The notes beneath the pieces are model-generated. The model worked only from the letters and a program-made list of their open reading frames with translations, made no database searches and was not told the DNA's origin. Positions 929 through 63,799 of a DNA stretch of 64,000 bases are shown piece by piece. Both the position numbers and the translations under genes were made by a program. Each line of letters starts with the position of its first letter. The stretch's first letter is position 1. Origin of the DNA: a virus; the IMG/VR virus record IMGVR_UViG_3300050821_004478. One strand, written 5' to 3'.

Positions 929-1611
929 AGACCGCGCTTTTAGTTATAGCCACAGGAGAGCGATATCACCAGTATGTTAATCCACTGCTGGAGTCTGCTA
1001 AAGAATTTTTCGTGGAGCACGACGCGTTCTTATGGGCGGACGAACTAATTCCCAGCATCGCGAAATTTCAACTTCAAAAGTATGCCTTGGGATTTCCAAA
1101 CGAGACGCTGTACAGATACCACACCTTCTTTGAACAGTATCAATTTCTTGAGAAGTACGACTACTTGTTTTACATCGACGTAGACATGCGATTCGTTGCC
1201 CCGGTAGGGGAGGAGATATTCTCTGATGGTATAACGGCCACGCTACATCCGGGCTATGTCGGCACACCGGGTACACCGGAGCGTCGCGCTGAGTCGATGG
1301 CAGTTATTCCACAAGGAAGCAACAACAGGTATTTCTGCGGAGGTTTCAATGGCGGGACTTCGGGGCATTTTCTGCGCATGGCACAAGCTATAAAAGGAGC
1401 AGTCGACGAAGATGCGAGTAGAGGAATCACAGCTATATGGCACGATGAATCGCACTTAAACAGATACCTATACTTGAATGGTCCAACGAAAGTTCTCGAC
1501 CCGTCTTACTGCTACCCGGAGAACGCAGGTCCATACTACACAAGCAAGTGGAAGGCCGCAGGCTTGATTGTCACTCCAAAGATTCTGGCGTTAACCAAGG
1601 CGGGCAAATGA
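925..1611 (+). CDS. GT6-family glycosyltransferase (ABO / alpha-1,3-Gal(NAc) transferase-like)
   Basis: Motifs YIDVDMRF, TLHPG, ERR..S.A.IP, GGFNGG, AIWHDESHLNRYL and PTKVLDPSY, collinear with ABO transferases as recalled. ATGA overlap with the upstream stop. Confidence 0.85.
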   Translation: MKTALLVIATGERYHQYVNPLLESAKEFFVEHDAFLWADELIPSIAKFQLQKYALGFPNETLYRYHTFFEQYQFLEKYDYLFYIDVDMRFVAPVGEEIFSDGITATLHPGYVGTPGTPERRAESMAVIPQGSNNRYFCGGFNGGTSGHFLRMAQAIKGAVDEDASRGITAIWHDESHLNRYLYLNGPTKVLDPSYCYPENAGPYYTSKWKAAGLIVTPKILALTKAGK

Positions 1612-2387: not shown

Positions 2388-4462
2388 AGACCGCTGTCAT
2401 CCTAGTCGCGACAGGCGAACGTTACGCAGGGCACATCGCGCCGATGATCGCATCTCTGAGAGATTTCTTCCCACCGTGCGATATACTCTTGTTCACCGAC
2501 AGCAAAGATTCTTTTGACGCAATCAAGTTTGATTATCTGGACCTGGGATGGCCGGACGCTACCATGATGCGCTATCACGCCATCTACGAGCAGCGGGGCT
2601 TCCTGCTGGCGTATGACCACGTTTATTACATGGACGTGGACTTACGGGTCGTCAGCAAGATAGCACTCGACGAAATTTTTGCTGGCGGAATCACCGCAGT
2701 CCTACATCCGGGTTTCCCGGAGGCTTGGGAGCGTCGCCCGCAATCTGCCGCTTACGTCGGCAATGGCTCCACATATTATCAAGGCTGCTTCGTTGGTGGA
2801 AGCACCGGCGCATTTCTTCACATGTGCGCCAGTATAAGCAAGAGCATCGACGCAGACAATGAGAAGGGAATTACCGCAGTCTGGTTCGATGAATCGCACT
2901 TGAATCGCTATCTGCACGACAACCCGCCTGGAAAGGTCTTATCTCCCGCCTACGCTTATCCGGAAGGCTGGACCGGGCTGGTCCCCAAGATTCAGCACTT
3001 AGAGAAGCCCGACCAGTCTTGGAAGGATAGCAACAAGATCGTCAGAGGCTTTTGGTCTGGTCCAGAATTAACGAACATCCAGAAACTGTGCATCCGCTCT
3101 TACATGCGGCACGGCCATGAGTTCCACTTGTATGTAACACAGCCAACGGAAGGCATCCCGAAGGGAACGGTAGTCAAAGATGCAAACGAGATTCTACCCA
3201 AGTCTAGATTAGCGGAGTTTGACAACAGCGTGCACTTCTGCGACTACTTTCGGGTCCTCCTGATCTTGAGAGAGGGCGGCTGGTATGTAGATTTGGATAC
3301 GGTGTGCCTGCGCAAACTAGACTTCCCGGAGCCTTACGCCTTCGTATCAGAAGAGAAATTGGGCGCTCGTCGATCTCCCGATACGGATGTCATCCCATCT
3401 TCCGACAAAGTCCAAGAGTATCTCAGCGGCTGCGTCTTCAAGGCACCGAAGGACGCGGAAGTTTTGAAGTACATTGCCAACAAGATCGAGAGCATGGATA
3501 AGATGCACCCGGAAAGTTGGATATCCTTCGGCCCCGCGCTATTCAAAGAGGCCGTCCCGAAATTCGGGCTGAGCAAATATGTCAAGGCCCCGATAGTACT
3601 CGATGCCATGCGATATGATGAGATGCTGCACTTCGTATCTCCCGGACTCAAGCGATGGAATTTCACAGACCGGTCTTACTTGATTCACTTGAGAACATCT
3701 GCCTGGACCGACGGCGCTTTGGTGCCTAATAAAATATATCACCCGAGGTCTTTGTTTGAAGAACTGAAGGTCCGAAACAGCGTAGAGACCCGAGTATCCA
3801 TAGTGATTCCTTGCTACAACATGAAGGAGTATTTGAAAGAGACCATCGAATCGGCCTTGGCGCAGACTTACAGAAACTTCGAAGTGATCGTGGTCGACGA
3901 CGGCTCGATGGACAATGTTCACACAGTGTCCCAGCAGTTCGTAGATTCAATCGTGTGGATACGACAAGAAAACCAGGGACTGAATGTGGCCCGCAATACC
4001 GGAGCCAAGGCCGCCACAGGCGATTTGCTCCTATTCTTAGACGCTGACGACTTACTCGACTCCCACTATCTTGAGAAAACCGTGCCGCTTATGAAGGCAG
4101 GCGTCGGCATAGTCTCAACGGATATGCAGTACTTCGGGTTATCCGACCTGCGAATACCGACCGCCGAGACTTTGGAGCAGCAGAAAGTATCCAATCAGAT
4201 GCCGTACTGCCGCCTCATCCTTCGAGAGGCTTTCGAGCAGGCCGGTGGATACAGCATGAATCTGGATATCTGGGCCTACGGTGATTGGAATCTTTCCTTA
4301 GACATTTTGAAGCGAACTTGGAAGTGCGCTGTCCTGCATGAACCGTTATTCAAATACCGGATGCGCCCCGGCTCGATGAGGAGCATAGCGGGCCAGACTC
4401 ATGAGCAGATGTGCGCAGCGATTCGAAGAAATCATCCAGACATATTCCCGGAGGGAAAGTGA
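2384..4462 (+). CDS. Three-domain glycosyltransferase: N-terminal GT6, central GT32-like (DXD sugar-binding region), C-terminal GT2
   Basis: N-terminal domain: YMDVDLRV, VLHPGF, ERRPQSAAY, GCFVGG, AVWFDESHLNRYL. Central domain: FWSGPEL..CIRSY, FCDYFRVLLILREGGWYVDLDTV. C-terminal domain: VSIVIPCYN...QTYRNFEVIVVDDGS...LDADD. Confidence 0.75.
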   Translation: MKTAVILVATGERYAGHIAPMIASLRDFFPPCDILLFTDSKDSFDAIKFDYLDLGWPDATMMRYHAIYEQRGFLLAYDHVYYMDVDLRVVSKIALDEIFAGGITAVLHPGFPEAWERRPQSAAYVGNGSTYYQGCFVGGSTGAFLHMCASISKSIDADNEKGITAVWFDESHLNRYLHDNPPGKVLSPAYAYPEGWTGLVPKIQHLEKPDQSWKDSNKIVRGFWSGPELTNIQKLCIRSYMRHGHEFHLYVTQPTEGIPKGTVVKDANEILPKSRLAEFDNSVHFCDYFRVLLILREGGWYVDLDTVCLRKLDFPEPYAFVSEEKLGARRSPDTDVIPSSDKVQEYLSGCVFKAPKDAEVLKYIANKIESMDKMHPESWISFGPALFKEAVPKFGLSKYVKAPIVLDAMRYDEMLHFVSPGLKRWNFTDRSYLIHLRTSAWTDGALVPNKIYHPRSLFEELKVRNSVETRVSIVIPCYNMKEYLKETIESALAQTYRNFEVIVVDDGSMDNVHTVSQQFVDSIVWIRQENQGLNVARNTGAKAATGDLLLFLDADDLLDSHYLEKTVPLMKAGVGIVSTDMQYFGLSDLRIPTAETLEQQKVSNQMPYCRLILREAFEQAGGYSMNLDIWAYGDWNLSLDILKRTWKCAVLHEPLFKYRMRPGSMRSIAGQTHEQMCAAIRRNHPDIFPEGK

Positions 4463-6790: not shown

Positions 6791-7314
6791 ACCTTCGCTG
6801 GAATAGTTTCCTGAGACGGTTCGAAGCAGAATTCTCTGGTGATTTTGCAGGAGACCTCGCCGCCGTCAAAGAAGCAGGATTCAAGACAGACGGGGCACCG
6901 GGGTGGATATGGCACACGTTGAAGGCTGGACCTCTTACAAAGTTACGCACCCTCCGTCCCGGGTTACTCACTATCTCCCCGGAAGCCCGGGCGCAGTATA
7001 CCCCTATGGCTGCGATGGAGGAGAAGAACGCCGAGATCAAAGCCAAGGCAGCCAGCCACAACAAGGCTTCGAAGAAAAAGTTGAAGATAGCGGAGCAGAT
7101 TGCAAACGCGGTGGTGATTCCTGAGAAAGGCTACATCGATGCCTCCGACCTGCCGCCCCGCCCTCCGTATGTTTCCCCGTTTACCCCTCCCCCGCCGCCC
7201 GCCACGCTGTGCATCGTATGCGCGGCCCCCATCTATTTCTATGAACTGCAGTCCCCTCCGACCTGTCTTTGGTGTGAAAAAATAGTGCTTGACAAAACCG
7301 AAGAAGTCTGTTAG
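6787..7314 (+). CDS. hypothetical protein with C-terminal zinc-ribbon-like CIVC...CLWC
   Basis: GTGA overlap with the upstream gene. Pro-rich linker followed by CxxC-N18-CxxC. Confidence 0.5.
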   Translation: MNLRWNSFLRRFEAEFSGDFAGDLAAVKEAGFKTDGAPGWIWHTLKAGPLTKLRTLRPGLLTISPEARAQYTPMAAMEEKNAEIKAKAASHNKASKKKLKIAEQIANAVVIPEKGYIDASDLPPRPPYVSPFTPPPPPATLCIVCAAPIYFYELQSPPTCLWCEKIVLDKTEEVC

Positions 7315-7317
7315 CCT
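7289..7317 (+). promoter_or_regulatory. sigma70-like promoter candidate (TTGACA-N17-TAGCCT)
   Basis: Lies in the 3' end of the upstream ORF, 16 nt before the GGAGG RBS of the 7333 gene. Confidence 0.45.
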
Positions 7318-7332
7318 ACTTTTGGAGGTATT

Positions 7333-7554
7333 ATGACAAAACTGTTCGCATCTTTAGTTATTCTTGTTGCAATGGTCCTGGGCTTATCGATGTTGATGGC
7401 ATATCCCACGATGTGGATTGTGAACTATCTGTTCACCGCCCAATTACTGACTTTCGTTTTCGGTGCCGCGAAGATCGGTTTTTGGAAGGCCCTCGTTCTC
7501 AATGTATTCTTCGGCACCGCATTCAAAAGTTCCAATTCGAGTTCAAAAGATTGA
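7333..7554 (+). CDS. small membrane protein (holin candidate)
   Basis: 73 aa with at least 2 hydrophobic helices. GGAGG RBS. Located near the endolysin. Confidence 0.5.
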   Translation: MTKLFASLVILVAMVLGLSMLMAYPTMWIVNYLFTAQLLTFVFGAAKIGFWKALVLNVFFGTAFKSSNSSSKD

Positions 7555-11208: not shown

Positions 11209-11360
11209 GCAACGCACCTTATCAAGTCGAGATTAAGCGTTTGACAACAATTTCAGAGCGCCAATCCAAGATGCTCGCGCAGGCGTTCTCCATCGGTTGT
11301 ATGCGCTTCGTTGGCGTGAACCGCACGAAGTTGATTCGATGGGCCAAGGCGGGGAAGTGA
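11205..11360 (+). CDS. small hypothetical protein (51 aa)
   Basis: ATGA overlap with the upstream gene. Below the ORF-track length cutoff. Confidence 0.4.
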   Translation: MSNAPYQVEIKRLTTISERQSKMLAQAFSIGCMRFVGVNRTKLIRWAKAGK

Positions 11361-11575
11361 ACGAAAAGAAACAATACCTGATCTACGGAGTTCTCGTGGA
11401 GGCCGTCAAGTCCGAGGGCAGCGGCTTCTACGATCTCACTATACCGGTGACAGGTGATAAACAGCGATACCTAGCAGACGTATTCGAAGATATCGCTATG
11501 CCCCTGGGAGCGTGCGCGACTCATCGAACGCCGCACCCGAAGAACGCTGATTGCAGGGAATGGAGCCACGTATGA
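11357..11575 (+). CDS. hypothetical protein
   Basis: GTGA overlap with the upstream gene. An alternative ATG lies at 11339. Confidence 0.45.
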   Translation: MNEKKQYLIYGVLVEAVKSEGSGFYDLTIPVTGDKQRYLADVFEDIAMPLGACATHRTPHPKNADCREWSHV

Positions 11576-11805
11576 GTCATCTAAGATTTGATCTAAAACC
11601 GAATCCCGGCAACAAGACCTGCCGGTGGTTGATCGTCAATCCCGCAGGTGACCCAGATACCGGCTCGGGCCAGCTTGGCTTCATCGAGTATCGCCCCACT
11701 TGGCGGCGATATGTGTGGGGCACGCTTAACAATGCAATATTCGATGTCGATTGTACCCAGGAGATCGTGGACTTCCTGCGGCTACACAAGGATGATAGAC
11801 AGTGA
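11572..11805 (+). CDS. hypothetical protein
   Basis: ATGA overlap with the upstream gene. Confidence 0.5.
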   Translation: MSHLRFDLKPNPGNKTCRWLIVNPAGDPDTGSGQLGFIEYRPTWRRYVWGTLNNAIFDVDCTQEIVDFLRLHKDDRQ

Positions 11806-13578: not shown

Positions 13579-13607
13579 TGACAAACTTTCCGAACTGTGA
13601 GAGACTT
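13579..13607 (+). promoter_or_regulatory. sigma70-like promoter candidate (TTGACA-N17-GAGACT)
   Basis: Sits immediately upstream of the integrase GGAGAA RBS and ATG at 13627. Confidence 0.4.
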
Positions 13608-13626
13608 GGTGCATGGAGAAAACAAG

Positions 13627-14526
13627 ATGACGTTTCAATCACAGGCTGAGACTTTCATGTCTGAAATTGCCCTTCGCAAAAGTGACCCCGCGAAAGTGAA
13701 CACTTTGCGCGTCTATCGCTCCATCATCGACTTCCGTCTCCTACCTGCCATCGGCGGGCTGGAATTGCAGGAGGTCAACAACCGAACTGTCAAGGTACTC
13801 GTTGGCCGTCTCGCAGAGGCTGATCTGAGTCCCGCCACCATAACCTTGGCAGTCAGTCTCGTGAAGCAGGTTGTCAAGTCTGCGGTAGACGACGAAGGAA
13901 ATCAACTTTATCCCAGAACGTGGAATACCCGCTTTATCGACGCCCCGAAGATCGACAAATCAGCCCAGAGGACCCCAATTGCCACATCCCTGGCGCTGGG
14001 AGGCGCTGTGGCAGCCGTAAGGGGCGAAGTGGGGGGATTAGTGGCCCTCCTGGCTGGGACCGGCCTACGGGTCGGGGAGGCCCTTGCCATGCATAAGATC
14101 GACGACGGGGTGTCCAACTATTGGGACCCGGCAGCCGGGACCATCGCGGTACGCGCGACCCTGGTCAACGGCAAGTTGCAAGACTCCACCAAGACCAAGG
14201 CCGGGACCCGTATCGTGGACTTAGACCCGGCACTGAATAGCCTCCTGCATTCGGTATTCGCGATTCGCGATTCAAAAATATTTGTATCCTCGGAGCGCAC
14301 TCTTCGCCGCCGCATAGAAGAACTCGGGCTAGAAGGTTTTCACTCCATGCGCCGCTTCCGCATCACCCACCTGCAAGCCGCGAGCGTCCCCGCGACCCTG
14401 GTGAAGTTTTGGGCCGGTCACGCGGCGGGCGATGTTTCTGAAAGATACACAAAATTTGGGGAGCAGATTATGGTCAGAAAAACATGGGCCGATAAGGCAG
14501 GTTTGGGGTTCGATCTTCATGCGTAA
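13627..14526 (+). CDS. int: tyrosine recombinase / phage integrase
   Basis: SAM-like N-terminal domain. Catalytic-region pattern TGLRVGEAL ... HSMRRFRITHL ... GH ... ERY. Confidence 0.8.
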   Translation: MTFQSQAETFMSEIALRKSDPAKVNTLRVYRSIIDFRLLPAIGGLELQEVNNRTVKVLVGRLAEADLSPATITLAVSLVKQVVKSAVDDEGNQLYPRTWNTRFIDAPKIDKSAQRTPIATSLALGGAVAAVRGEVGGLVALLAGTGLRVGEALAMHKIDDGVSNYWDPAAGTIAVRATLVNGKLQDSTKTKAGTRIVDLDPALNSLLHSVFAIRDSKIFVSSERTLRRRIEELGLEGFHSMRRFRITHLQAASVPATLVKFWAGHAAGDVSERYTKFGEQIMVRKTWADKAGLGFDLHA

Positions 14527-57435: not shown

Positions 57436-57510
57436 TGGTTGCCTGATTTGGATTCGGACCAAAACTTCCGCTTTCAGAGAGCGGCGTGCTACCGGTTGCA
57501 CTATCTGGCA
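57436..57510 (-). tRNA. tRNA-Gln: tRNA-Gln (anticodon CUG)
   Basis: D arm GUGC/GCAC; anticodon arm CCGCU-CUCUGAA-AGCGG; T arm UUUGG-UCCGAAU-CCAAA; CCA encoded; one A-A mismatch in the acceptor. Confidence 0.8.
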
Positions 57511-57608
57511 ATTGAAATAAAAGTCGTCCCTACTAAGGCGATGGGGTCCTTTTCCTCCGAGGTCACATCGCGCTGCTTCCTCAAAGTACCAGACCGACGA
57601 CCCGAGAT
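57511..57608 (-). ncRNA. unassigned structured spacer between tRNAs (candidate processed stable RNA)
   Basis: 98 nt with no cloverleaf. Terminal pairing GGGUCGUC...GACGAC and an internal GAGG...CCUC hairpin. Confidence 0.25.
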
Positions 57609-57684
57609 TGGTTGCTCATGAAGGACTCGAACCTTCATCTTCGGATTCAAAGTCCGAGGTCCTCCCAATTAGACGAGAGAGCAA
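57609..57684 (-). tRNA. tRNA-Gln: tRNA-Gln (anticodon UUG)
   Basis: Anticodon arm UCGGA-CUUUGAA-UCCGA; T arm GAAGG-UUCGAGU-CCUUC; CCA encoded; 1-2 mismatches at the base of the acceptor. Confidence 0.75.
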
Positions 57685-57691
57685 TAGAAAC

Positions 57692-57765
57692 TGGTCCCGA
57701 GCCACCGAGTCGAGCGGTGTCTTCTCCGTCTTCAGCGGAGGGTGCAACCCTTACACCTGCAGGGG
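57692..57765 (-). tRNA. tRNA-Phe: tRNA-Phe (anticodon GAA), non-canonical
   Basis: Anticodon arm CUCCG-CUGAAGA-CGGAG; T arm CACCG-CUCGACU-CGGUG; acceptor CCCCUGC/GCUCGGG has two central mismatches; CCA encoded. Confidence 0.55.
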
Positions 57766-57766
57766 A

Positions 57767-57952
57767 TTAAATAAGTTCAATAGTAAATGCGTGTGGGTTT
57801 GAGAACTCACCATACTTACAGGTGACTTTCAGTTTTCCCAAATCAAACTGTGTGAACGTAAACTCATGAGGCAGCAAGTTATGAGAAATGAATTGTTGTT
57901 TCAGTTCTCGAATCAATGAGACGTCGATTTTATCTGCCTGCTCTTGAGTCAT
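57767..57952 (-). CDS. small hypothetical protein (61 aa)
   Basis: Start trimmed to the MTQEQ ATG with a GAAGGA RBS. The longer ORF would run through tRNA-Ser. Confidence 0.45.
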   Translation of the reverse strand: MTQEQADKIDVSLIRELKQQFISHNLLPHEFTFTQFDLGKLKVTCKYGEFSNPHAFTIELI

Positions 57953-57967
57953 TGTTGTTCCTTCAAA

Positions 57968-58054
57968 TGGCGGAGAGCCAAGGAGTCGAACCCTGTCACG
58001 CGTGAGCGTGTCTCTGTTTTCAAGACAGTTAAGCACCGTTGCTAGCTGCCCTCC
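57968..58054 (-). tRNA. tRNA-Ser: tRNA-Ser (anticodon UGA), type II
   Basis: Acceptor GGAGGGC/GCUCUCC; anticodon loop CUUGAAA; long variable arm CACGC-UCAC-GCGUG; T loop UUCGACU; CCA encoded. Confidence 0.85.
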
Positions 58055-58197
58055 GTAAAATTTGCCCGTTACAGATGAGTCCTCCTCGTGAAGGTCATCA
58101 CCCTAAGCTCCCACGGGTCCGAGGCATGATCGCGTCGCCCGGGTAACGTCCTTCTAGTCCGGCAGCACCACGCGATGGAACAACATCAAGATTAAAT
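58055..58197 (-). ncRNA. unassigned structured spacer between tRNAs (candidate processed stable RNA)
   Basis: 143 nt with no cloverleaf and no ORF. Contains a 7-bp helix AUCGCGU...ACGCGAU. Confidence 0.3.
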
Positions 58198-58283
58198 TGG
58201 CGGAACGAGAAGGAGTCGAACCTTCACGACCTCTCGGTCGCAAGTTTAGCAAACTTGTCCGGCTACCGTTTCGGCACCGTTCC
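58198..58283 (-). tRNA. tRNA-Ser: tRNA-Ser (anticodon GCU), type II
   Basis: Acceptor GGAACGG/UCGUUCC; anticodon arm CAAGU-UUGCUAA-ACUUG; variable arm CGACC-GAGA-GGUCG; CCA encoded. Confidence 0.85.
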
Positions 58284-58284
58284 A

Positions 58285-58332
58285 TGTCAACTTATAGATT
58301 GACAAATAACTCTCGTTTGTCAACTTATAGAT
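58285..58332. repeat. 15-bp direct repeat TGTCAACTTATAGAT x2 (period 33) between tRNA genes
   Basis: Exact copies at 58285-58299 and 58318-58332. Confidence 0.8.
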
Positions 58333-58343
58333 GTACAAAATTT

Positions 58344-58420
58344 TGGCGGGAAGCGACGGACTCGAACCGCCACCCTTCGGGTTGGAGCCGAAGATGCTGC
58401 CACTAACACTTGCGACCCGC
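58344..58420 (-). tRNA. tRNA-Trp: tRNA-Trp-like (anticodon CCA) with aberrant acceptor/T geometry
   Basis: Anticodon arm CUUCGG-CUCCAAC-CCGAAG; T arm GGCGG-UUCGAGU-CCGUC. The 5' strand GCGGGUCGC pairs with the 3' strand GCUUCCCGC only with two internal mismatches. Confidence 0.5.
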
Positions 58421-58426
58421 TGAAAC

Positions 58427-58514
58427 TGGTGGATAGTGAACGACTCGAACGTTCGAAGCCCACATGGGGCGCGTGTTTTACAGACACGAGCAATTGCCGC
58501 TATGCGAACCATCC
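58427..58514 (-). tRNA. tRNA-Tyr: tRNA-Tyr (anticodon GUA), type II
   Basis: Acceptor GGAUGGU/ACUAUCC; anticodon arm CGUGU-CUGUAAA-ACACG; long variable arm; T arm GAACG-UUCGAGU-CGUUC; CCA encoded. Confidence 0.85.
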
Positions 58515-58522
58515 ATGAAACT

Positions 58523-58596
58523 TGGAGCACCACAACTGAATCGAACAGTTGCCTCTGCCTTACGAAGGAAGTGTCCTGCCACTGGACCAGCAGTGC
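58523..58596 (-). tRNA. tRNA-Thr: tRNA-Thr (anticodon CGU)
   Basis: D arm GUCC/GGAC; anticodon loop UUCGUAA; T arm AACUG-UUCGAUU-CAGUU; CCA encoded. Confidence 0.8.
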
Positions 58597-58604
58597 TCAA
58601 AACT

Positions 58605-58844
58605 TTACTTTACGTGCGCGCGAAACCATGCTGCTAGACGCGCTGGCCACCATGAGGGCGGCTGCGGCGGCTTCTGCTTTGCAATTGGCGTGTTGAGCAT
58701 TCCGTTGTAGGAAGGCATAAGCACGCTGCCGTCGTCGTAATAGATCGGACCATTCACGGCTTTGTCGCCGTACTTGAATGAGCCTGCGGGAAACGGATTG
58801 CTCTGGCTACCGTCTGGTACTGGCACTACTGGCGTTGTTGCCAT
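58605..58844 (-). CDS. small hypothetical protein (79 aa)
   Basis: Start trimmed to the MATTPV ATG with an AGGAGA RBS. The longer ORF would run through tRNA genes. Confidence 0.45.
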   Translation of the reverse strand: MATTPVVPVPDGSQSNPFPAGSFKYGDKAVNGPIYYDDGSVLMPSYNGMLNTPIAKQKPPQPPSWWPARLAAWFRAHVK

Positions 58845-58860
58845 GCGTTCTCCTAAAAGT

Positions 58861-58935
58861 TGGAGCGAGATACCAGAATCGAACTGGTGCCTAAACCTTG
58901 GCAAGGTCTCGTACAAACCACTATACGAATCCCGC
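58861..58935 (-). tRNA. tRNA-Gly: tRNA-Gly (anticodon GCC)
   Basis: Acceptor GCGGGAU/AUCUCGC; anticodon loop UUGCCAA; T arm ACCAG-UUCGAUU-CUGGU; CCA encoded. Confidence 0.85.
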
Positions 58936-58942
58936 TTAAAAT

Positions 58943-59018
58943 TGGAGCAAAGTGATGGATTCGAACCACCGTGTCGAAGGTACAAGCTTCGCATACTAGG
59001 CCGCTGTATGAACCATGC
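58943..59018 (-). tRNA. tRNA-Thr: tRNA-Thr (anticodon UGU)
   Basis: Anticodon arm CGAAG-CUUGUAC-CUUCG; T arm GGUGG-UUCGAAU-CCAUC; CCA encoded; U4-U69 mismatch. Confidence 0.8.
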
Positions 59019-59020
59019 TC

Positions 59021-59094
59021 TGGAGCCAAGACGTGGAATCGGACCACGGCCTCCTCCTTACCAAGGAGGAATTCTGCCACTAGACTATCTAGGC
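59021..59094 (-). tRNA. tRNA-Thr: tRNA-Thr (anticodon GGU)
   Basis: Anticodon arm CCUCC-UUGGUAA-GGAGG; T arm CGUGG-UCCGAUU-CCACG; CCA encoded; U4-U69 mismatch. Confidence 0.8.
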
Positions 59095-59103
59095 TCAAAA
59101 CTT

Positions 59104-59451
59104 TTACTTCAAAGAAATCTTTGATGCCTTCAGCTTCAGAAAATTTCTGATAACCTGAATGCCTTCGACAACGGAGACGCCAGCTAGGAATGCATATCCT
59201 GCGCCGAGGTTATGAGCCGCGATTACCGCTCCGACGCCCAGGACCGCTACCGCGCTAAGGAACGCGCTCAACGACTGGCCAATCTTTGCAAAAAGAAACT
59301 TCATGACCGGGTTGCCTTCCACAAAGCCGTGCTGCAGACCGATCATGGTGGTGTAAGCATCACCCAACACCGCGACGAGACTTGTAAAACTTAGTGCAGC
59401 CAAGAGAACCGTCTGTCCTGCTGTCCATGTGCCTACTGGAGGTGTGAACAT
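59104..59451 (-). CDS. membrane protein (DUF5658-like, ...GFVEGNP... motif)
   Basis: Start trimmed to the MFTPPV ATG. Four hydrophobic helices. The longer ORF would run through tRNA-Gly. Confidence 0.5.
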   Translation of the reverse strand: MFTPPVGTWTAGQTVLLAALSFTSLVAVLGDAYTTMIGLQHGFVEGNPVMKFLFAKIGQSLSAFLSAVAVLGVGAVIAAHNLGAGYAFLAGVSVVEGIQVIRNFLKLKASKISLK

Positions 59452-59466
59452 TAATTCTCCTAAAAA

Positions 59467-59540
59467 TGGAGCGAACTGCGAGACTCGAACTCGCTTCTCC
59501 GGCTTGGAAGACCAGGGCACAACCTATATGCCAAGCTCGC
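59467..59540 (-). tRNA. tRNA-Gly: tRNA-Gly (anticodon UCC)
   Basis: Acceptor GCGAGCU/AGUUCGC; anticodon loop CUUCCAA; T arm GCGAG-UUCGAGU-CUCGC; CCA encoded. Confidence 0.85.
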
Positions 59541-59548
59541 TCAGAAAT

Positions 59549-59635
59549 TGGTTGCAGGGGCCAGATTCGAACTGGCGGTGTGCTTTCGCATCGGGCTTAT
59601 GAGACCCGCGACATCGGCCACTAGTCGACCCTACA
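59549..59635 (-). tRNA. 87-nt type II (long variable arm) tRNA with CAU anticodon
   Basis: Acceptor UGUAGGG/CCCUGCA; A73; 11-nt D loop; anticodon arm CGGGU-CUCAUAA-GCCCG; about 15-nt variable arm containing UGC-GAAA-GCA; T arm GCCAG-UUCGAAU-CUGGC; CCA encoded. Confidence 0.7.
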
Positions 59636-59699
59636 ACTGAAACTTTATTTGCTCATCACCCAGATCACATACACGACTGAGATGATGACGCCCAGAACG

Positions 59700-59942
59700 T
59701 TACAGACTGTTCGCGTCAGCGCCATTTTCTGATCTAAGCTGAGCGACATTCTTTTCGTCCTTTTTCTTGTTGCGACCGTCATACCACTTTCGTCGCAATC
59801 CCAAATATTCGAGTTGAGCCTTCAGACTCTCCTCCGCTGCGACTCGCATCGCACGATCATCTTTCCAGATGCTGATTAGAAAGTATAAGGCTACTAAGTC
59901 GACCGCCAGTGCTGCAACCGAGGCTGCGTCTGCTATCGTCAT
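59700..59942 (-). CDS. small membrane-anchored protein
   Basis: 80 aa with an N-terminal TM helix followed by a charged helix. Confidence 0.45.
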   Translation of the reverse strand: MTIADAASVAALAVDLVALYFLISIWKDDRAMRVAAEESLKAQLEYLGLRRKWYDGRNKKKDEKNVAQLRSENGADANSL

Positions 59943-59964
59943 AGATCACCGATCAGGACGAAAA

Positions 59965-60040
59965 TGGTTCCCCAGGTTGGATTCGGACCAACGACCCCTT
60001 GCTTATCAGGCGAGTGCTCTAGCCACTGAGCTACCGGGAA
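59965..60040 (-). tRNA. tRNA-Ile: tRNA-Ile (anticodon GAU)
   Basis: D arm UAGCUCAGUGGCUAGAGC; anticodon loop CUGAUAA; T arm GUUGG-UCCGAAU-CCAAC; CCA encoded. Confidence 0.85.
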
Positions 60041-60048
60041 ATTGAAAC

Positions 60049-60363
60049 TTATTTACGTTGAAGTCTTGCGTACCAAAGAAGCTGATGTTGATAGTCTTCT
60101 TCAGCGGTGCAGAAACTCCAAGGCCAAAACTTTTCGAGTGTCGGGGGGAACTGCAACGTCTGCTTCCCGTCGCGACCCCAAGACCACACATCGTTGAAAC
60201 TTGCTTCCAGGCGTTTCGGGATGACTAGTTCTTCCCAATCTTTGCAATCCCTGATTGCCTGCTCTTGCGCCCGACGCCAGCAGCGGCGAGCAACCATCTT
60301 GTCGTGCGCCGCTGATCTCACGCCTGTGATGGCAGAGTACGGCTTGCGATAACTTTTTGACAT
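60049..60363 (-). CDS. hypothetical protein
   Basis: 104-aa ORF between tRNA genes. Confidence 0.5.
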   Translation of the reverse strand: MSKSYRKPYSAITGVRSAAHDKMVARRCWRRAQEQAIRDCKDWEELVIPKRLEASFNDVWSWGRDGKQTLQFPPTLEKFWPWSFCTAEEDYQHQLLWYARLQRK

Positions 60364-60413
60364 TGAAACCTCCGTAGGTTTACCTAATACATGTCATGTT
60401 ATCTCCTTAAAAT

Positions 60414-60486
60414 TGGTGGACCGATGGGGAGTCGAACCCCTTTTTCTCGGTGCAAGCGAGACGTATACCCGTCCTACTCTCAGCCC
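60414..60486 (-). tRNA. tRNA-Ala: tRNA-Ala (anticodon UGC)
   Basis: Acceptor GGGCUGA/UCGGUCC with G3-U70; anticodon arm UCUCG-CUUGCAC-CGAGA; CCA encoded. Confidence 0.8.
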
Positions 60487-60492
60487 ATAAAG

Positions 60493-60567
60493 TGGTAGCG
60501 TAGCAGAGACTCGAACTCTGTCTTCGTGCTTGAAAGGCACGATGCCTAACCCATAGCAGACTGCGCC
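60493..60567 (-). tRNA. tRNA-Glu: tRNA-Glu (anticodon UUC)
   Basis: Anticodon arm CGUGC-CUUUCAA-GCACG; T arm CAGAG-UUCGAGU-CUCUG; CCA encoded; C5-A68 mismatch. Confidence 0.8.
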
Positions 60568-60576
60568 ACTGAAAAT

Positions 60577-60663
60577 TTATTCGCCCTTCGGTGCCTTGAA
60601 GAACCAAGCAGCGAGCAGAAGCACAAACAGTGTGCCTCCGATGATCTCAAATATGACTGTCAT
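60577..60663 (-). CDS. possible 28-aa membrane peptide
   Basis: Translation MTVIFEIIGGTLFVLLLAAWFFKAPKGE. Weak RBS. Below the ORF-track cutoff. Confidence 0.3.
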   Translation of the reverse strand: MTVIFEIIGGTLFVLLLAAWFFKAPKGE

Positions 60664-60671
60664 CTCTATTC

Positions 60672-60875
60672 CTATTGCACAATCACTATCGGTGCCGGAA
60701 GTCTGAATGGCTTCCCCAACAGCGCCCCGTGTGGTCCTACTTTCATGAAGAGATCAGCGGAGCCATCCTTGTAAACATACAAGTGCCAACCGCGCGCTCT
60801 CTTATAATTTAGAACCGGATAGACATACGTGCCGTCTCCTTGTTCTTCAATCTCGATACAGTGATTTGCGATCAT
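60672..60875 (-). CDS. hypothetical protein
   Basis: 67-aa ORF. Confidence 0.45.
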   Translation of the reverse strand: MIANHCIEIEEQGDGTYVYPVLNYKRARGWHLYVYKDGSADLFMKVGPHGALLGKPFRLPAPIVIVQ

Positions 60876-60925
60876 AATGTTCTCCGTTGCTCAACGAGCA
60901 TATTATTCTACGGTGCTTCGAACTT

Positions 60926-61001
60926 TGGTAGCGTCGACGGGATTCTAACCCGTGTGGCCTGATTGAGAATCAGGAATCCTAGAACACTAGATGACATCGC
61001 C
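60926..61001 (-). tRNA. tRNA-Glu: tRNA-Glu (anticodon CUC)
   Basis: Anticodon arm CCUGA-UUCUCAA-UCAGG; T arm ACGGG-UUAGAAU-CCCGU; CCA encoded; A5-A68 mismatch. Confidence 0.75.
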
Positions 61002-61139
61002 ACAGAAATCGGTCTTCCTCATCGGCGCGTCCCAGCCGAATCGCCCGAGGGCTAGCCTCGTGCCTTTCTCACGCGCGATACTCAGCACGCCTCGCCCTTA
61101 GTGGACGTCTCACACGGTAGATGCCCGTGATCGGAAGTT
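61002..61139 (-). ncRNA. unassigned structured spacer between tRNAs (candidate processed stable RNA)
   Basis: 138 nt. Closing helix CUUCC...GGAAG, nested helices CGAGG[CGUGC...GCACG]...CCUCG, and hairpin CACGG-GCAUCUA-CCGUG. Confidence 0.3.
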
Positions 61140-61225
61140 TGGTGCGCTAGGTGGGAGTCGGACCCACAATCCCTTTCGGGCCGGGGGTTTTAAGTCCCCT
61201 GCGTATGCCATTCCGCCACACGCGC
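61140..61225 (-). tRNA. tRNA-Leu: tRNA-Leu (anticodon UAA), type II
   Basis: D arm GCGG..CGC; anticodon loop CUUAAAA; variable arm GGCCC-GAAA-GGGAU; A73; CCA encoded; two acceptor mismatches. Confidence 0.7.
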
Positions 61226-61230
61226 AAAGA

Positions 61231-61305
61231 TGGTGCCTCGTGATGGAATCGGACCATCGTCTCGACTTTATAAGAATCGGGCCTTCGCCATTAGACGAAC
61301 GAGGA
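61231..61305 (-). tRNA. tRNA-Ile: tRNA-Ile (anticodon UAU)
   Basis: Anticodon arm CGAUU-CUUAUAA-AGUCG; T arm GAUGG-UCCGAUU-CCAUC; CCA encoded; U1-C72 mismatch. Confidence 0.7.
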
Positions 61306-61314
61306 ACTGAAAAT

Positions 61315-61390
61315 TGGTACGAAGCAGAGGAATCGAACCTCTCTAGCCAGTGTGTAGGACTGGTGCATAGTGCCTATCTGCCAGCCTCGT
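61315..61390 (-). tRNA. tRNA-Val: tRNA-Val (anticodon UAC)
   Basis: Acceptor ACGAGGC/GCUUCGU; anticodon arm CCAGU-CCUACAC-ACUGG (C at position 33); T arm AGAGG-UUCGAUU-CCUCU; CCA encoded. Confidence 0.75.
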
Positions 61391-61397
61391 ATTGAAC

Positions 61398-61817
61398 CTA
61401 CCTATCCAATCGGAGTTCTTTGCAATAATGCTGTAGTCCAGTCCAACGTCCTTTGTCGACATTGAAGTTTCCGATTGGTTCAAACTTTTTGTGACCGACA
61501 CACCATGACATGCCTTCTGGCGCAATTTTTCTTTTAGATACCCCACCATGATAAATATGCTGACGGTTGCAATCCAAATGAGAGAATGCGACGTTGTCCA
61601 TATCCCAGAACAACTCGGCAGAGCGACCTTCCCACGGTCTGACGTGCTCTATGCTCAGTTCATCCACCGTCTCGATTTCTTTTTCACATCGAGCACATAT
61701 ATTGTCTCGGTACTTTTTCAATTGCCTGAATAGAACCATCTTACGAAGTCTATTCATCGCGGTGCCTTGTGGCATCCCGAGAGTCTCGATGACTCTCTGT
61801 GTTCTTGCGTTTGACAT
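61398..61817 (-). CDS. HNH homing endonuclease (paralogue of 63419-63799)
   Basis: Motif ...CARCEKEI...LSIEHVRPW...NVAFSHLDCN. Confidence 0.7.
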   Translation of the reverse strand: MSNARTQRVIETLGMPQGTAMNRLRKMVLFRQLKKYRDNICARCEKEIETVDELSIEHVRPWEGRSAELFWDMDNVAFSHLDCNRQHIYHGGVSKRKIAPEGMSWCVGHKKFEPIGNFNVDKGRWTGLQHYCKELRLDR

Positions 61818-61858
61818 AGTCGTTAGCCTCTGGCTGTAGATTTATGTGTTTGTAAAAT

Positions 61859-61934
61859 TGGTGCATCGCTCCAGGCTCGAACTGGAACTCCGTCGCTTAA
61901 AAGGCGAGTACGCTGCCGCTCGCGTCCGCAATGC
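61859..61934 (-). tRNA. tRNA-Lys: tRNA-Lys (anticodon UUU)
   Basis: Acceptor GCAUUGC/GCGAUGC; anticodon loop CUUUUAA; T arm UCCAG-UUCGAGC-CUGGA; CCA encoded. Confidence 0.8.
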
Positions 61935-61944
61935 ACAGAAAATT

Positions 61945-62019
61945 TGGTGGACTCGGTGGGATTCGAACCCACACCAAATCGGTTAAGAGCCGAGTATGCA
62001 ACCGTAACACCTCGGGTCC
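61945..62019 (-). tRNA. tRNA-Lys: tRNA-Lys (anticodon CUU)
   Basis: Acceptor GGACCCG/CGAGUCC; anticodon loop CUCUUAA; T arm GUGGG-UUCGAAU-CCCAC; CCA encoded. Confidence 0.8.
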
Positions 62020-62026
62020 ACTGTAG

Positions 62027-62353
62027 TTTTGGTGACGCTATAATCAGGATTCTGTCGAGGACGAACATTCCTCTCAAGTCGCTTTCGCGAAGCACGCTAC
62101 CCGCTCGTCATCCCGCTCAACAAGCGGTCAGAGCCTATTTGCGCTTGCACGAGTGTGGAGTTCGCTGACTCGAATGGCTCTTAAAGGCACCTTAACTGAG
62201 TTAGTGTGCTCTCAAGGGCACCAGCCCTTACCCGAACGCTTACGCGCCCCGCATCTTCCACGGCACTCTGTTGAGACGTGTCCTGAATTTCCTCGACGCG
62301 CCTTGGAGTATTTCACCGAGGGCTTACCGCCGCGTTCGTCTACGCTACCAAAA
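62027..62353 (-). ncRNA. rnpB: RNase P RNA (bacterial type A-like, reduced)
   Basis: On the minus strand: P1 UUUUGGU/ACCAAAA; P2 GACGAAC/GUUCGUC; P4 5' strand GAGGAAAUUCAGGA with a bulged U, pairing with the 3' strand ACAGAAUCCUGAUUA. Conserved blocks GGGUAAGGG, AACUCCAC..GCAAGCGCAAAUAGG and CGACAGAA occur in the canonical order. Confidence 0.8.
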
Positions 62354-62458
62354 TCTTCGGCATAGTTTTTCGTTAACCGCGCCGCGCCAAAACGATTCGA
62401 CTTGTCTACTTCGATTGCCGCGCGCTGGGCGAGACCTCGTGAATAGGGCCGACAAACT

Positions 62459-62532
62459 TGGAGCGCGAAGTGTGAATCGAACACACGATGGGTGTTTTGC
62501 AGACACCTAACTTACCACTTGTCGATTCGCGC
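62459..62532 (-). tRNA. tRNA-Cys: tRNA-Cys (anticodon GCA)
   Basis: Acceptor GCGCGAA/UUCGCGC; anticodon arm GGUGU-CUGCAAA-ACACC; T arm GUGUG-UUCGAUU-CACAC; CCA encoded. Confidence 0.9.
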
Positions 62533-62577
62533 AAACTTGACAATCAAGGTCTTAACCTTGACAAAACTGGTCGCTCA

Positions 62578-62664
62578 CCAGAGAGTCGAACTCTGACGCC
62601 CTTTCGGGCGGCGGGTTTTGAATCCGCTGCGTCTGCCGGTTCCGCCAGCAAGCGAATATTTACT
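62578..62664 (-). tRNA. tRNA-Leu: tRNA-Leu (anticodon CAA), type II
   Basis: Acceptor CGCUUGC/GUGAGCG; D arm GCGG..CGC; anticodon loop UUCAAAA; variable arm CGCCC-GAAA-GGGCG; A73; CCA encoded. Confidence 0.85.
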
Positions 62665-62705
62665 CGTGCTGTAAATATGGCACGAGGATTAAATTTGGAA
62701 GGCCA

Positions 62706-62780
62706 CCGGAGAGTCTAACTCCGCTCTGGACGTTCGTAGCGTCCCGTCGTGTACGATGGACTAGCAGCCCTCTGAAAATT
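62706..62780 (-). tRNA. tRNA-Arg: tRNA-Arg (anticodon ACG)
   Basis: Anticodon arm GGACG-CUACGAA-CGUCC; T arm CGGAG-UUAGACU-CUCCG; acceptor contains several G-U pairs; D loop lacks GG; CCA encoded. Confidence 0.7.
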
Positions 62781-62855
62781 GAATTCCCCGTTGCGCGGAA
62801 CAACGCGTCTCGCAACCTTTAAGTGCCGACGTTGCGCCCACGGCACGGAAAAAAT

Positions 62856-62930
62856 TGGAAGGCCCGGGGAGAATTCAACTCCCATAGTCGCCTTAGAAGT
62901 GCGACGTCCTGTGCATTGAACGACAGGCCC
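62856..62930 (-). tRNA. tRNA-Arg: tRNA-Arg (anticodon UCU)
   Basis: Acceptor GGGCCUG/CGGGCCU; anticodon loop CUUCUAA; T arm GGGAG-UUGAAUU-CUCCC; CCA encoded. Confidence 0.75.
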
Positions 62931-62937
62931 ACAAAAT

Positions 62938-63022
62938 TGGTTGCCCCTGAGAGACTTGAACTCTCAATCCCTTCCGGGCGCTTGTTTCTAAGACAAGTGC
63001 GTATTCGTTCCGCCAAGAGGCA
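62938..63022 (-). tRNA. tRNA-Leu: tRNA-Leu (anticodon UAG), type II
   Basis: Anticodon arm CUUGU-CUUAGAA-ACAAG; variable arm CCC-GGAA-GGG; T arm GAGAG-UUCAAGU-CUCUC; A73; CCA encoded. Confidence 0.85.
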
Positions 63023-63252
63023 ATAGAAATCCGAGGAGCTACTTATCAACGCGCGGCCCCCGGACGCGCTTTGGGTCCCTGTTTACAGAGACCGAGAGTG
63101 CATGCCCCTTACCAGTCGACGAGGCCACGCGCGCGGGAGCTACCCGGCTGTGTTTGACTCTCTGTTGTACAACATCGTTCCCCTGCCTGCCTCCGTTGCT
63201 TAGCCTCTTAGTTGAGGCCAGCTAACACAGTGGTGCCGTTCGAGGAAAGTTT
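63023..63252 (-). ncRNA. unassigned ~230-nt structured RNA candidate with RNase P S-domain-like motifs
   Basis: The minus strand contains ACAACAGAGAGUCAAAC, a GC-rich hairpin region, UGGUAAGGGG, and UCUCUGUAAAC. No cloverleaf and no ORF. Confidence 0.35.
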
Positions 63253-63327
63253 TGGCAGAGATAACGGGAATCGGACCCGTACTTTTTCCGTGACAGGGAA
63301 ACGTCGTTACCAACTGACCCTATCTCT
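63253..63327 (-). tRNA. tRNA-Asp: tRNA-Asp (anticodon GUC)
   Basis: Anticodon arm UUUCC-CUGUCAC-GGAAA; T arm ACGGG-UCCGAUU-CCCGU; G73; CCA encoded. Confidence 0.85.
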
Positions 63328-63335
63328 GCAGAAAT

Positions 63336-63411
63336 TGGCTCCATCCCTCCGACTCGAACGGAGACCCTCCTCATTAACAGTGAGGTGTCCTACCAATTGG
63401 ACCAGAATGGA
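63336..63411 (-). tRNA. tRNA-Asn: tRNA-Asn (anticodon GUU)
   Basis: Acceptor UCCAUUC/GGAUGGA; D arm GUCC/GGAC; anticodon arm CCUCA-CUGUUAA-UGAGG; T arm CUCCG-UUCGAGU-CGGAG; CCA encoded. Confidence 0.9.
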
Positions 63412-63418
63412 ACTGAAC

Positions 63419-63799
63419 TCAGTGCCCGGTTATTTGATATTTCCTTCGGCGCTTTCTTTCCGTGTATGTCCTTCTCATATACGCGGCTGTTTGTGCTCTC
63501 CGAACTTGTATCGCTTCTTCGGGCGAATACTTCCTTGTAATTCGACGGGCGTTTGTATTGCATGATCTGTGACTGAAAGAAATGTTCGTCAAAGAGAAGA
63601 ACAATACTTTCGGTTCACTGCTGTGCAACCACGGCTCCTTATGATCTATCGAGAAATCTCGACTAGACTCAATCTGCTTACCGCATCGAAAACAGGAATC
63701 CTTTTTCACTTCTCTTATCAACTCGAAAAGAATTTCCTTTCTGAGTTGATGGCAGGCCGTCCCAAACGGGACTCCTAGTTGCTGCTGCTTATTATCCAT
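63419..63799 (-). CDS. HNH homing endonuclease (paralogue of 61398-61817)
   Basis: Motif ...CFRCGKQI...FSIDHKEPW...NISFSHRSCN. GGGAGG RBS. Confidence 0.7.
   Translation of the reverse strand: MDNKQQQLGVPFGTACHQLRKEILFELIREVKKDSCFRCGKQIESSRDFSIDHKEPWLHSSEPKVLFFSLTNISFSHRSCNTNARRITRKYSPEEAIQVRRAQTAAYMRRTYTERKRRRKYQITGH

Follow-up and report, generated by a model that had tools for sequence, protein, structure and literature searches.

A putative class-A RNase P RNA gene with a trimmed specificity domain in the tRNA array of an uncultured tailed phage

Introduction

The RNA subunit of ribonuclease P (RNase P) belongs to the small set of universal ribozymes and is treated as a cellular housekeeping gene, while in classic phage work the host RNase P matures the transfer RNAs (tRNAs) of the phage. 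Presented here is an RNase P RNA-like gene of 327 nt, located at 62027-62353 on the minus strand of the viral record IMGVR_UViG_3300050821_004478 (hereafter the window, meaning the whole stretch of 64,000 nt that was analyzed) and lying inside a phage tRNA array. Its closest described counterparts are the bacterial RNAs of the Rfam family RF00010, such as the M1 RNA of E. coli (rnpB), with which it shares the helix order P1-P12 and P15-P18, the P4 and P6 pseudoknots, the conserved regions (CR) CR-I, CR-IV and CR-V, the GCAA of J5/15 and the GGU of L15. Unlike the RF00010 RNAs, it is a gene of a phage tRNA array, is 327 nt long and has neither P13/P14 nor CR-II/CR-III, and P18 is absent in 10 of its 11 relatives. 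New here are the genomic setting, a phage tRNA array, and the variant of class-A RNase P RNA with a trimmed specificity domain (S-domain).

Most of the S-domain is missing from the Type T RNase P RNA of the Thermoproteaceae (Pyrobaculum), which works with protein partners. That archaeal and cellular RNA (also mentioned in PMC8172020) is far more reduced than the RNA of the window, a 158-nt element from another viral contig (locus L142, see below) being nearer to that extreme. Concerning bacteria, members of the Candidate Phyla Radiation (CPR) have class-A-derived RNase P RNAs that score below the Rfam thresholds and lack P13, P14, P18 and sometimes P12 (PMC8172020). Unlike the phage RNA, they are the sole RNase P RNA of the organism, and some of them lack the L15 UGG/GGU, which the phage keeps (PMC8172020). 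Additionally, Mycobacterium austroafricanum and Mycobacterium sp. YC-RL4 bear extra RNase P RNA (RPR, rnpB) copies with differences in the S-domain and conserved functional residues, which adjoin an endonuclease gene and for which horizontal transfer is suspected (PMC9569102). The phage element is similar to them in its altered S-domain and in the endonuclease genes nearby (here HNH genes in the array), a likeness of description, whereas the mycobacterial copies belong to bacterial genomes and no link to tRNA arrays or phages was drawn for them (PMC9569102).

Among viruses, the searched literature offered a single precedent, the RNase P-like RNA of camelpox virus, which has a partial structural similarity and does not cleave pre-tRNA in vitro (PMC3001073). 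Unlike this RNA of a eukaryotic virus, the phage RNA is a full-length homologue with an intact catalytic core. Stable RNAs other than tRNAs are also encoded among phage tRNA genes, namely the species 1 and 2 RNAs of T4; we know of no catalytic role in tRNA maturation for these or for the GOLLD RNA, and both are unrelated in sequence to the phage RNase P RNA. Like the present element they lie within tRNA arrays, those of Mycobacterium in the case of GOLLD (cited in PMC9569102), and are presumably released by the tRNA-processing machinery. The first-pass annotation of the window had regarded RNase P RNA as an unrecognized phage gene and, in agreement with this, the literature searched contained no description of an RNase P RNA encoded by a phage, most subscription journals being outside its coverage; RNase P is also unmentioned in a 2020 survey of huge phages and in a 2026 review of jumbo phages.

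Identification of the Element

A local Rfam scan with permissive filters matched the element to RF00010 (bacterial RNase P RNA, class A) at 62025-62351 on the minus strand with 92.8 bits (E = 5.9e-29). The match covers model positions 1-367, that is the full length, and is far beyond chance. When the whole window was scanned at the gathering thresholds, only tRNAs were listed, since 92.8 bits is less than the curated RF00010 cut-off of 100 bits. For the same reason, scores falling under that cut-off, genes of the window type are missed by standard annotation pipelines. Within the RNase P clan, RF00010 scored best on the 62027-62353 stretch. The hallmarks of class B (RF00011; P5.1, P10.1 and P15.1 with no P6, P16 or P17) do not apply, as P6, P16 and P17 are present. 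Taken together with the genomic context, this supports the reading of the element as an M1-like RNase P RNA gene of class A that a phage carries among its tRNA genes.

The first-pass annotation had proposed such a gene, of about 327 nt and with a reduced S-domain, between tRNA-Cys and tRNA-Lys(CUU). Its length and position were confirmed, and every sequence block that it named was located on the minus strand where it had been placed, including GUGCAAGCGCAAAUAGG, CGGGUAGCGU, AGAGGAAU and a hairpin with a GUAA tetraloop, as well as the strands of P1, P2 and P4 described below. The class-A identity stands on the RF00010 match (E = 6e-29), on the phage context and on compensatory changes in 12 contigs, while the reduction of the S-domain was borne out by the absence of P13/P14 and of the CR-II/CR-III joining regions. 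Its expectation of an RF00010 hit above the gathering threshold was answered in part: the match is significant and full-length, but the threshold was narrowly missed (92.8 vs 100 bits).

Relatives and Covariation

The same element was identified in 11 further related contigs, giving 12 distinct members. A generic class-A pattern led to 28 loci in IMG/VR, among them L143 (a 98.5-kb contig) and L145, which have sub-threshold full-length RF00010 matches and syntenic tRNA arrays, the scores of the relatives being 92.5 and 78.4 bits. A stricter pattern returned L143 and L145 again from the viral contigs and nothing else, while nearly all matches of a 15-mer scan of the viral contigs were chance ones. 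A family-flavored pattern applied to metagenome and genome collections added one member, L156, among the matches listed, the rest being ordinary cellular rnpB. For further relatives, DNA was fetched around a spread of the 76 metagenomic homologues of an 80-aa open reading frame (ORF) of the window (59700-59942, minus strand). This ORF has no Pfam match and keeps close to the RNase P RNA gene in the relatives, being situated 0.3-0.6 kb downstream of it in L156 and L143. A scan with a family profile detected the element in all related contigs that reach far enough upstream, typically in the order tRNA-Cys(GCA), element, tRNA-Lys, and in arrays of 19-32 tRNAs.

Plain MAFFT alignment of the full elements misplaced the variable hairpins, and the core alignment was rebuilt from anchored segments. 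It comprises 250 columns of the 12 sequences, with the variable hairpins masked and segments of fixed length between the anchors, and its pairwise identity is 64-90%. The class-A structure, including the two pseudoknots, was written onto this alignment before the pairs were counted. Standard pairs fill 98.3% of 887 cells, over 75 base pairs in 14 helices, compared with 80.4% in shuffles and 35-40% when the partners were slid by 1-3 columns. Changes on both sides were found in 47 of the 75 pairs (shuffle mean 22.8, slid versions 5-12), a value reached by 0 of 500 shuffles under a control that ignores the phylogeny among the 12 sequences. Support extends to all 14 helices (P1, P2, the base of P3, P4, P5, P6, P7, P8, P9, P10, P11, P15, P16 and P17), and RNAalifold, to which no structure was given, recovered the same P1, P3, P4, P7-P11 and P15-P17. 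Such a pattern argues that selection has maintained the RNA structure in this group of uncultured phages.

The family profile scored the members at 195 bits or more and some 240 sampled cellular and metagenomic rnpB loci at 50 bits or less, a separation which argues against a recent capture from a host. Neither close similarity to a cellular gene of this sample nor unconstrained pairing, the marks of a captured host rnpB, was found. It is therefore highly improbable that the element is a decaying passenger, i.e. a host rnpB taken up with adjacent tRNA genes, as could happen when a prophage excises imprecisely, and drifting with no function: host-type rnpB genes of 250-350 bits beside a tRNA are indeed common at the edges of IMG/VR proviral contigs and offer a capture route, and the element scores under the Rfam cut-off with a partly lost S-domain, but the 12 diverged copies keep 98% of their pairs with 47 compensated, hold a syntenic position, have no close cellular relative among the approximately 240 rnpB loci, and in all members show losses limited to the same peripheral elements.

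Exchange within the family is also hinted at. The 5' catalytic-domain part of the window element is 94% identical to that of L390, while their S-domains are only 65% identical; the S-domain of the window is closest to that of L156 (85%), and the P18 insert is identical in the window and L390 only. This mosaic identity suggests that RNase P RNA genes of phages have recombined with one another.

Secondary Structure

Read in its own direction, the element begins with the 5' strands of P1 (UUUUGGU and GCGU) and P2 (GACGAAC) at 62334-62353, whose partners are located at 62027-62038 and 62060-62066. As the first-pass annotation had it, UUUUGGU (62347-62353) pairs with ACCAAAA (62027-62033), and GACGAAC (62334-62340) pairs with GUUCGUC (62060-62066). 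Over the 12 phages, both sides have changed in 5 of 12 pairs of P1 and in 4 of 7 pairs of P2. The P3 hairpin (62294-62332, fold of -8.3 kcal/mol) is variable in length and sequence within the family, from about 10 to 55 nt among the relatives, while the base of its stem co-varies in 3 of 4 pairs. It is followed at 62281-62293 by CR-I with the 5' strand of P4, AGGAAAUUCAGGA, which includes the bulged U and is aligned to the model segment GAGGAAAGUCCGG. Its partner is the CR-V / P4 3' strand ACAGAAUCCUGAUU (62042-62055), also with a bulged U and aligned to ACAGAACCCGGCUUA. P4 has 8 bp, is paired in 100% of the cells of the 12 sequences, as the strands proposed from the window had implied, and shows 5 pairs changed on both sides (variants CAGGA/UCCUG, CCGGU/ACCGG and CUGGA/UCCAG); its recovery by RNAalifold was independent.

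The 5' strand of P5 (CAC) and J5/7, which carries the P6 5' strand UCAACA, occupy 62269-62280. UCAACA pairs with UGUUGA of the P17 loop, and P6 is paired in 98.6% of the cells with 3 compensated pairs (variants UCAACA/UGUUGA and UAAACG/CGUUUA; in L145, for example, CUAAACG/CGUUUAG). The reduced S-domain (P7-P12, with no P13/P14 and no CR-II/CR-III) extends over 62151-62268 and contains P8 (62249-62263), the P9 hairpin with its GUAA tetraloop (62234-62248), the P12 hairpin (62177-62219) and J12/11 CAUUCGAG (62169-62176), all on the minus strand. Compensated pairs were counted in 5 of 5 positions of P7, 4 of 5 of P9 and 5 of 5 of P11, while P10 has one-sided changes only.

Downstream, at 62134-62150, the block GUGCAAGCGCAAAUAGG holds the P5 3' strand and J5/15 (GUGCAA), the P15 5' strand (GCGC) and the 5' side of L15 (AAAUAGG), the last of which is unchanged in 12 of 12 sequences; P15 is compensated in 4 of 4 pairs (GCGC/GCGU, GUUC/GAAU, CUGC/GCAG and UCUC/GAGA). 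The P16-P17 arm (62104-62133), whose loop forms P6, is compensated in 3 of 3 pairs of P16 and 3 of 4 of P17. The 3' side of L15 (CGGGUA) and the P15 3' strand follow in CGGGUAGCGU (62094-62103), CGGGU being identical in all 12 family sequences. A P18-like hairpin UCGCGAAAGCGA with a GAAA tetraloop (62079-62090, fold of -5.1 kcal/mol) is present in the window and L390 only and absent from the other 10 members. The 3' part of the RNA, CR-IV, P2 3' strand, J2/4 and CR-V, is a single block aligned to RF00010 at 62042-62074, in which CR-IV AGAGGAAU (62067-62074) is aligned to the model AGAugAAUG and the P2 3' strand GUUCGUC lies at 62060-62066. The P1 3' strands (GCGU and ACCAAAA, 62027-62038) close the element, all of these features being on the minus strand.

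The catalytic core is thus retained: CR-I, the GCAA of J5/15, the AAAUAGG and CGGGU of L15, CR-IV, CR-V, the bulged U of P4, and P6. The motifs GAGGAA (CR-I), GCAA (J5/15), AGA.GAAU (CR-IV) and ACAGAA (CR-V) are invariant or nearly so in the 12 sequences. Class-A features are also present in the P1-P2-P3 stack with P5 and the P7-P10 cruciform, in P15 with an internal loop L15 carrying GGU, and in the P16-P17 arm with its P6 pseudoknot to J5/7, which separates class A from class B. Variation is concentrated in P3, P12, P18 and a P19-like hairpin, while the segments between anchors are fixed at 29, 27 and 30 nt. P12 ranges from a 10-nt GNRA-capped hairpin up to 53 nt, and P11 is linked to P12 by a single U (5' side) and the conserved CAUUCRAG (3' side). 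The UUCRA core of the latter resembles a T-loop motif, which we offer only as a suggestion. The covariance model skips or deletes the positions of J11/12, P12-P14 and J12/13, including ACAGAAA and GUGAAA.

The tRNA Array, Leader, and Ends

The tRNA array of the window is located at 57436-63411 (minus strand) and consists of 25 tRNAs called by ARAGORN and one found by Rfam only (60929-61001, minus strand, 48.7 bits), with small ORFs interspersed. The first-pass annotation had counted about 30 tRNAs with an encoded CCA, and while the number is lower, the encoded 3'-CCA was found in all 25 ARAGORN genes; 17 of the 25 have U at position -1. The GGU of L15, which pairs with the 3'-CCA of tRNA in bacterial RNase P (G292, G293 and U294 of the E. 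coli M1 RNA), is invariant in the family, and its match to the encoded CCA fits an ordinary cleavage of pre-tRNA. Upstream of the element, tRNA-Cys(GCA) (62459-62532, minus strand) is the syntenic 5' neighbor, as it lies ahead of the element in the majority of the family and in a second phage lineage described below. Downstream, tRNA-Lys(CUU) (61945-62019, minus strand), a presumed substrate, is separated from P1 by the 7-nt trailer CUACAGU (62020-62026, minus strand). The trailer is similar to the inter-tRNA spacers, which are about 8 nt long and resemble (A/G)UUUCAGU.

It had been proposed that the element is released by the processing of its flanking tRNAs. For the 3' side this is plausible, given that tRNA-Lys starts 7 nt past P1, and a tight adjacency of P1 to the downstream tRNA is found in 6 of 12 family members; an RNase P cut at position +1 of tRNA-Lys would trim the element's own 3' end. 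On the 5' side the neighbor is not a tRNA but a conserved leader of 105 nt (62354-62458, minus strand) between tRNA-Cys and P1. Its blocks AGUUUGUCGG, CGAAGUAGACAAGUCGAAUCGUUU and UAACGAAAA are common to 8 relatives, its length in the family is 75-145 nt, and RNAalifold yielded a co-varying hairpin of 4 bp only. The leader has no Rfam match and no sigma-70-like promoter, and the matches of the promoter scan were no commoner than in shuffled sequence. As no promoter was detected, co-transcription with the array would be the simplest reading.

Two HNH-type homing-endonuclease ORFs lie in the array at 61398-61817 and 63419-63799 (minus strand). HNH paralogues occupy several positions of the L143 array, while one GIY-YIG/NUMOD3 and two Endonuclease VII ORFs are located elsewhere in the window.

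Proposed Function

The interpretation that we prefer, with a probability of roughly 0.7, is that the element provides the phage with its own RNA subunit of RNase P, derived from bacterial class A and kept by selection, which matures the phage tRNAs together with the host protein. Homology, a fold conserved through covariation, synteny and CCA-encoding substrates were demonstrated, while the following account of how the RNA is transcribed, obtains its ends, recruits the RnpA of the host, cleaves and profits the phage is inferred. The element would probably be transcribed with the tRNA array as a single long precursor, and its 3' end would arise when RNase P cleaves in front of tRNA-Lys, which starts 7 nt further on. 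Once mature, the RNA (approximately 327 nt) would adopt the usual fold of the catalytic domain, with P1-P5, P15-P17, both pseudoknots (P4 and P6) and, in the window copy, P18, and would bind the RnpA of the host, which is proposed because no phage rnpA was found. The holoenzyme would cleave the 5' leaders of the approximately 26 pre-tRNAs of the phage, whose encoded 3'-CCA would pair with the invariant L15 GGU. Since the S-domain is trimmed to P7-P12 and has no T-loop-reading modules, recognition of the substrate would probably lean on the CCA-L15 contact and on a contact of the protein with the leader. A likely benefit would be extra or phage-controlled capacity for tRNA processing during heavy expression of the array.

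Concerning the protein partner, for which the first-pass annotation had suggested a search of the rest of the genome, neither the window nor a 6-kb extension yielded an RnpA-like ORF (Pfam, PF00825, on 72 small and mid-size ORFs; 69.9 kb of the 101.7-kb contig). Searches with phmmer and tblastn, using two RnpA query sequences, gave no match, and 264 kb of viral loci, from relatives and others, was likewise devoid of an RnpA-like ORF. The use of host RnpA is accordingly a working assumption of the proposed function.

Several points weigh against this interpretation. The element fails the Rfam cut-off, an operational test of class A, by about 7 bits, a shortfall that arises because the model skips the S-domain stretch absent from the element. 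It also lacks one structural feature of the class, as the whole 12-member family is devoid of P13, P14 and the J11/12 and J12/13 modules (CR-II, CR-III). In bacterial RNase P, CR-II/CR-III and P13/P14 contact the elbow formed by the T-loop and D-loop of the tRNA, and since they are missing, efficiency or specificity may suffer. The minimum free energy fold of the single sequence is no better than that of shuffles (z = -0.59). The anchors of the core alignment were set manually, and the P1 of L145 is in a different register and was masked. Finally, because no rnpA was found, the RNA would depend on a host protein of uncertain compatibility.

Some of the same observations could be read in favor of a mimic or decoy, which would resemble the catalytic domain in its fold, bind host RnpA or pre-tRNAs and mainly divert or inhibit the host RNase P instead of catalyzing, so that phage tRNAs are favored or the host tRNA supply is shut down. 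The reduced S-domain with no CR-II/CR-III would suit such a role, the lack of a phage rnpA would imply competition for the host protein, and the camelpox RNase P-like RNA, inactive in vitro, has been discussed as a possible decoy (PMC3001073). However, a decoy of the protein would not need P6, the L15 GGU, J5/15 or the geometry of the bulged U in P4, all of which are kept or compensated, and a phage that relies on about 26 tRNAs of its own would be harmed by inhibition of RNase P; we therefore consider this explanation unlikely. Judged about equally improbable is an RNase P ribozyme that is active but chiefly serves another purpose, which would act on the leader or other phage transcripts, act in cis on its own precursor, or replace a host RNase P RNA lost through host defense or phage-induced shut-off. 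The conserved 75-145-nt leader upstream of the element, the altered S-domain, which suggests an altered choice of substrates, and the position of the element within the same transcript as its presumed substrates could all be accommodated in this way. Nevertheless, nothing points to a substrate other than tRNA, and the GGU together with the CCA-encoding tRNAs fits the cleavage of pre-tRNA.

If the phage RNase P RNA is indeed kept by selection, it would add a catalytic RNA to the translation genes of phages (tRNAs, transfer-messenger RNA, synthetases and ribosomal proteins).

Other Viral RNase P RNA-Like Elements

A second lineage was identified in the tRNA arrays of IMG/VR contigs of 455, 332, 102, 58, and 49 kb, with RF00010 scores of 151-189 bits, above the cut-off (L126 at 7064-7438, plus strand; L137 at 1102-1400, minus; L139 at 11322-11705, plus; L144 at 3681-4064, minus; L148 at 1048-1430, minus). 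These elements have canonical CR-II/CR-III and are established directly downstream of tRNA-Cys(GCA); other phage lineages carry versions independent of the window family. A wider proposal is that a widespread family of approximately 100-kb uncultured phages and independent lineages (332 and 455 kb) encode active RNase P ribozymes in their arrays, the first virus-encoded ones, and that the window type, with a minimal S-domain lacking CR-II/CR-III, may act on its own polycistronic precursor; we hold this to be slightly better than an even bet. In that case the enzyme that processes the tRNA array would be encoded within it.

Locus L142, on the 46-kb IMG/VR contig 3300020420_000027, bears a 158-nt element (782-939, minus strand) which matches RF00010 from end to end with 79.4 bits. 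P1-P5, including P4, and P15 are present, the S-domain is apparently absent, and no tRNAs are nearby. It may represent a natural RNase P RNA with only a catalytic domain on a viral contig. Together with the window family and its stump of an S-domain, this relative would offer natural experiments on how much RNA is needed for the recognition of tRNA. Two further sub-threshold RF00010-like elements on viral contigs have no tRNAs in the fetched stretch: L131 (10293-10636, minus strand, 344 nt, 80.5 bits) and L133 (2569-2782, plus strand, 214 nt, 59.1 bits). With L142, they make three viral contigs whose elements are reduced still further.

Apart from these, many proviral contigs of IMG/VR bear a host-type rnpB at one end or close to it (L121-L125, L127-L130, L132, L134-L136, L138, L140, L141, L146, and L147), with 113-349 bits overall and 250-350 when not cut by the contig end. 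A tRNA is often situated 10-70 nt past such an rnpB. These genes are probably host DNA at prophage boundaries, and their adjacency to tRNAs makes a plausible route of capture by phages. Microcystis phage MaAM05 was considered as a precedent for the tRNA-array setting and rejected, because its rnpB-like match lies among the bacterial housekeeping genes fabI, engB, mtgA, and glyS. The stretch is unannotated (L411, 4001-4195, corresponding to MW495066.1, 115323-115517) and raises the question of whether part of that record is cellular DNA.

Features of the Phage Genome

The window belongs to a tailed phage, as it encodes matches to a terminase large subunit, a portal and a virion structural protein on the same strand as the element. 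Other ORFs harbor endolysin domains or encode Endonuclease VII, HNH, and GIY-YIG nucleases. The metagenome contig from which it derives has a length of 101,738 bp (ENA ERZ27253726, k141_2126788). Searches of the element and of 24 kb of the window by blastn and megablast gave no match in 50,697 GenBank phage records. By its terminase, the nearest cultured phage is the soil phage Tunturiibacter phage Tunturi_3 (27% identity), in which no RNase P RNA-like element and at most 2 tRNAs were found. An ORF at 13597-14526 (plus strand) is weakly similar to tyrosine integrases (Phage_integrase, E = 3e-4, under the Pfam cut-off), which hints that the phage may be temperate. Genes for a sugar-nucleotide epimerase and a glycosyltransferase are located near this integrase-like ORF.

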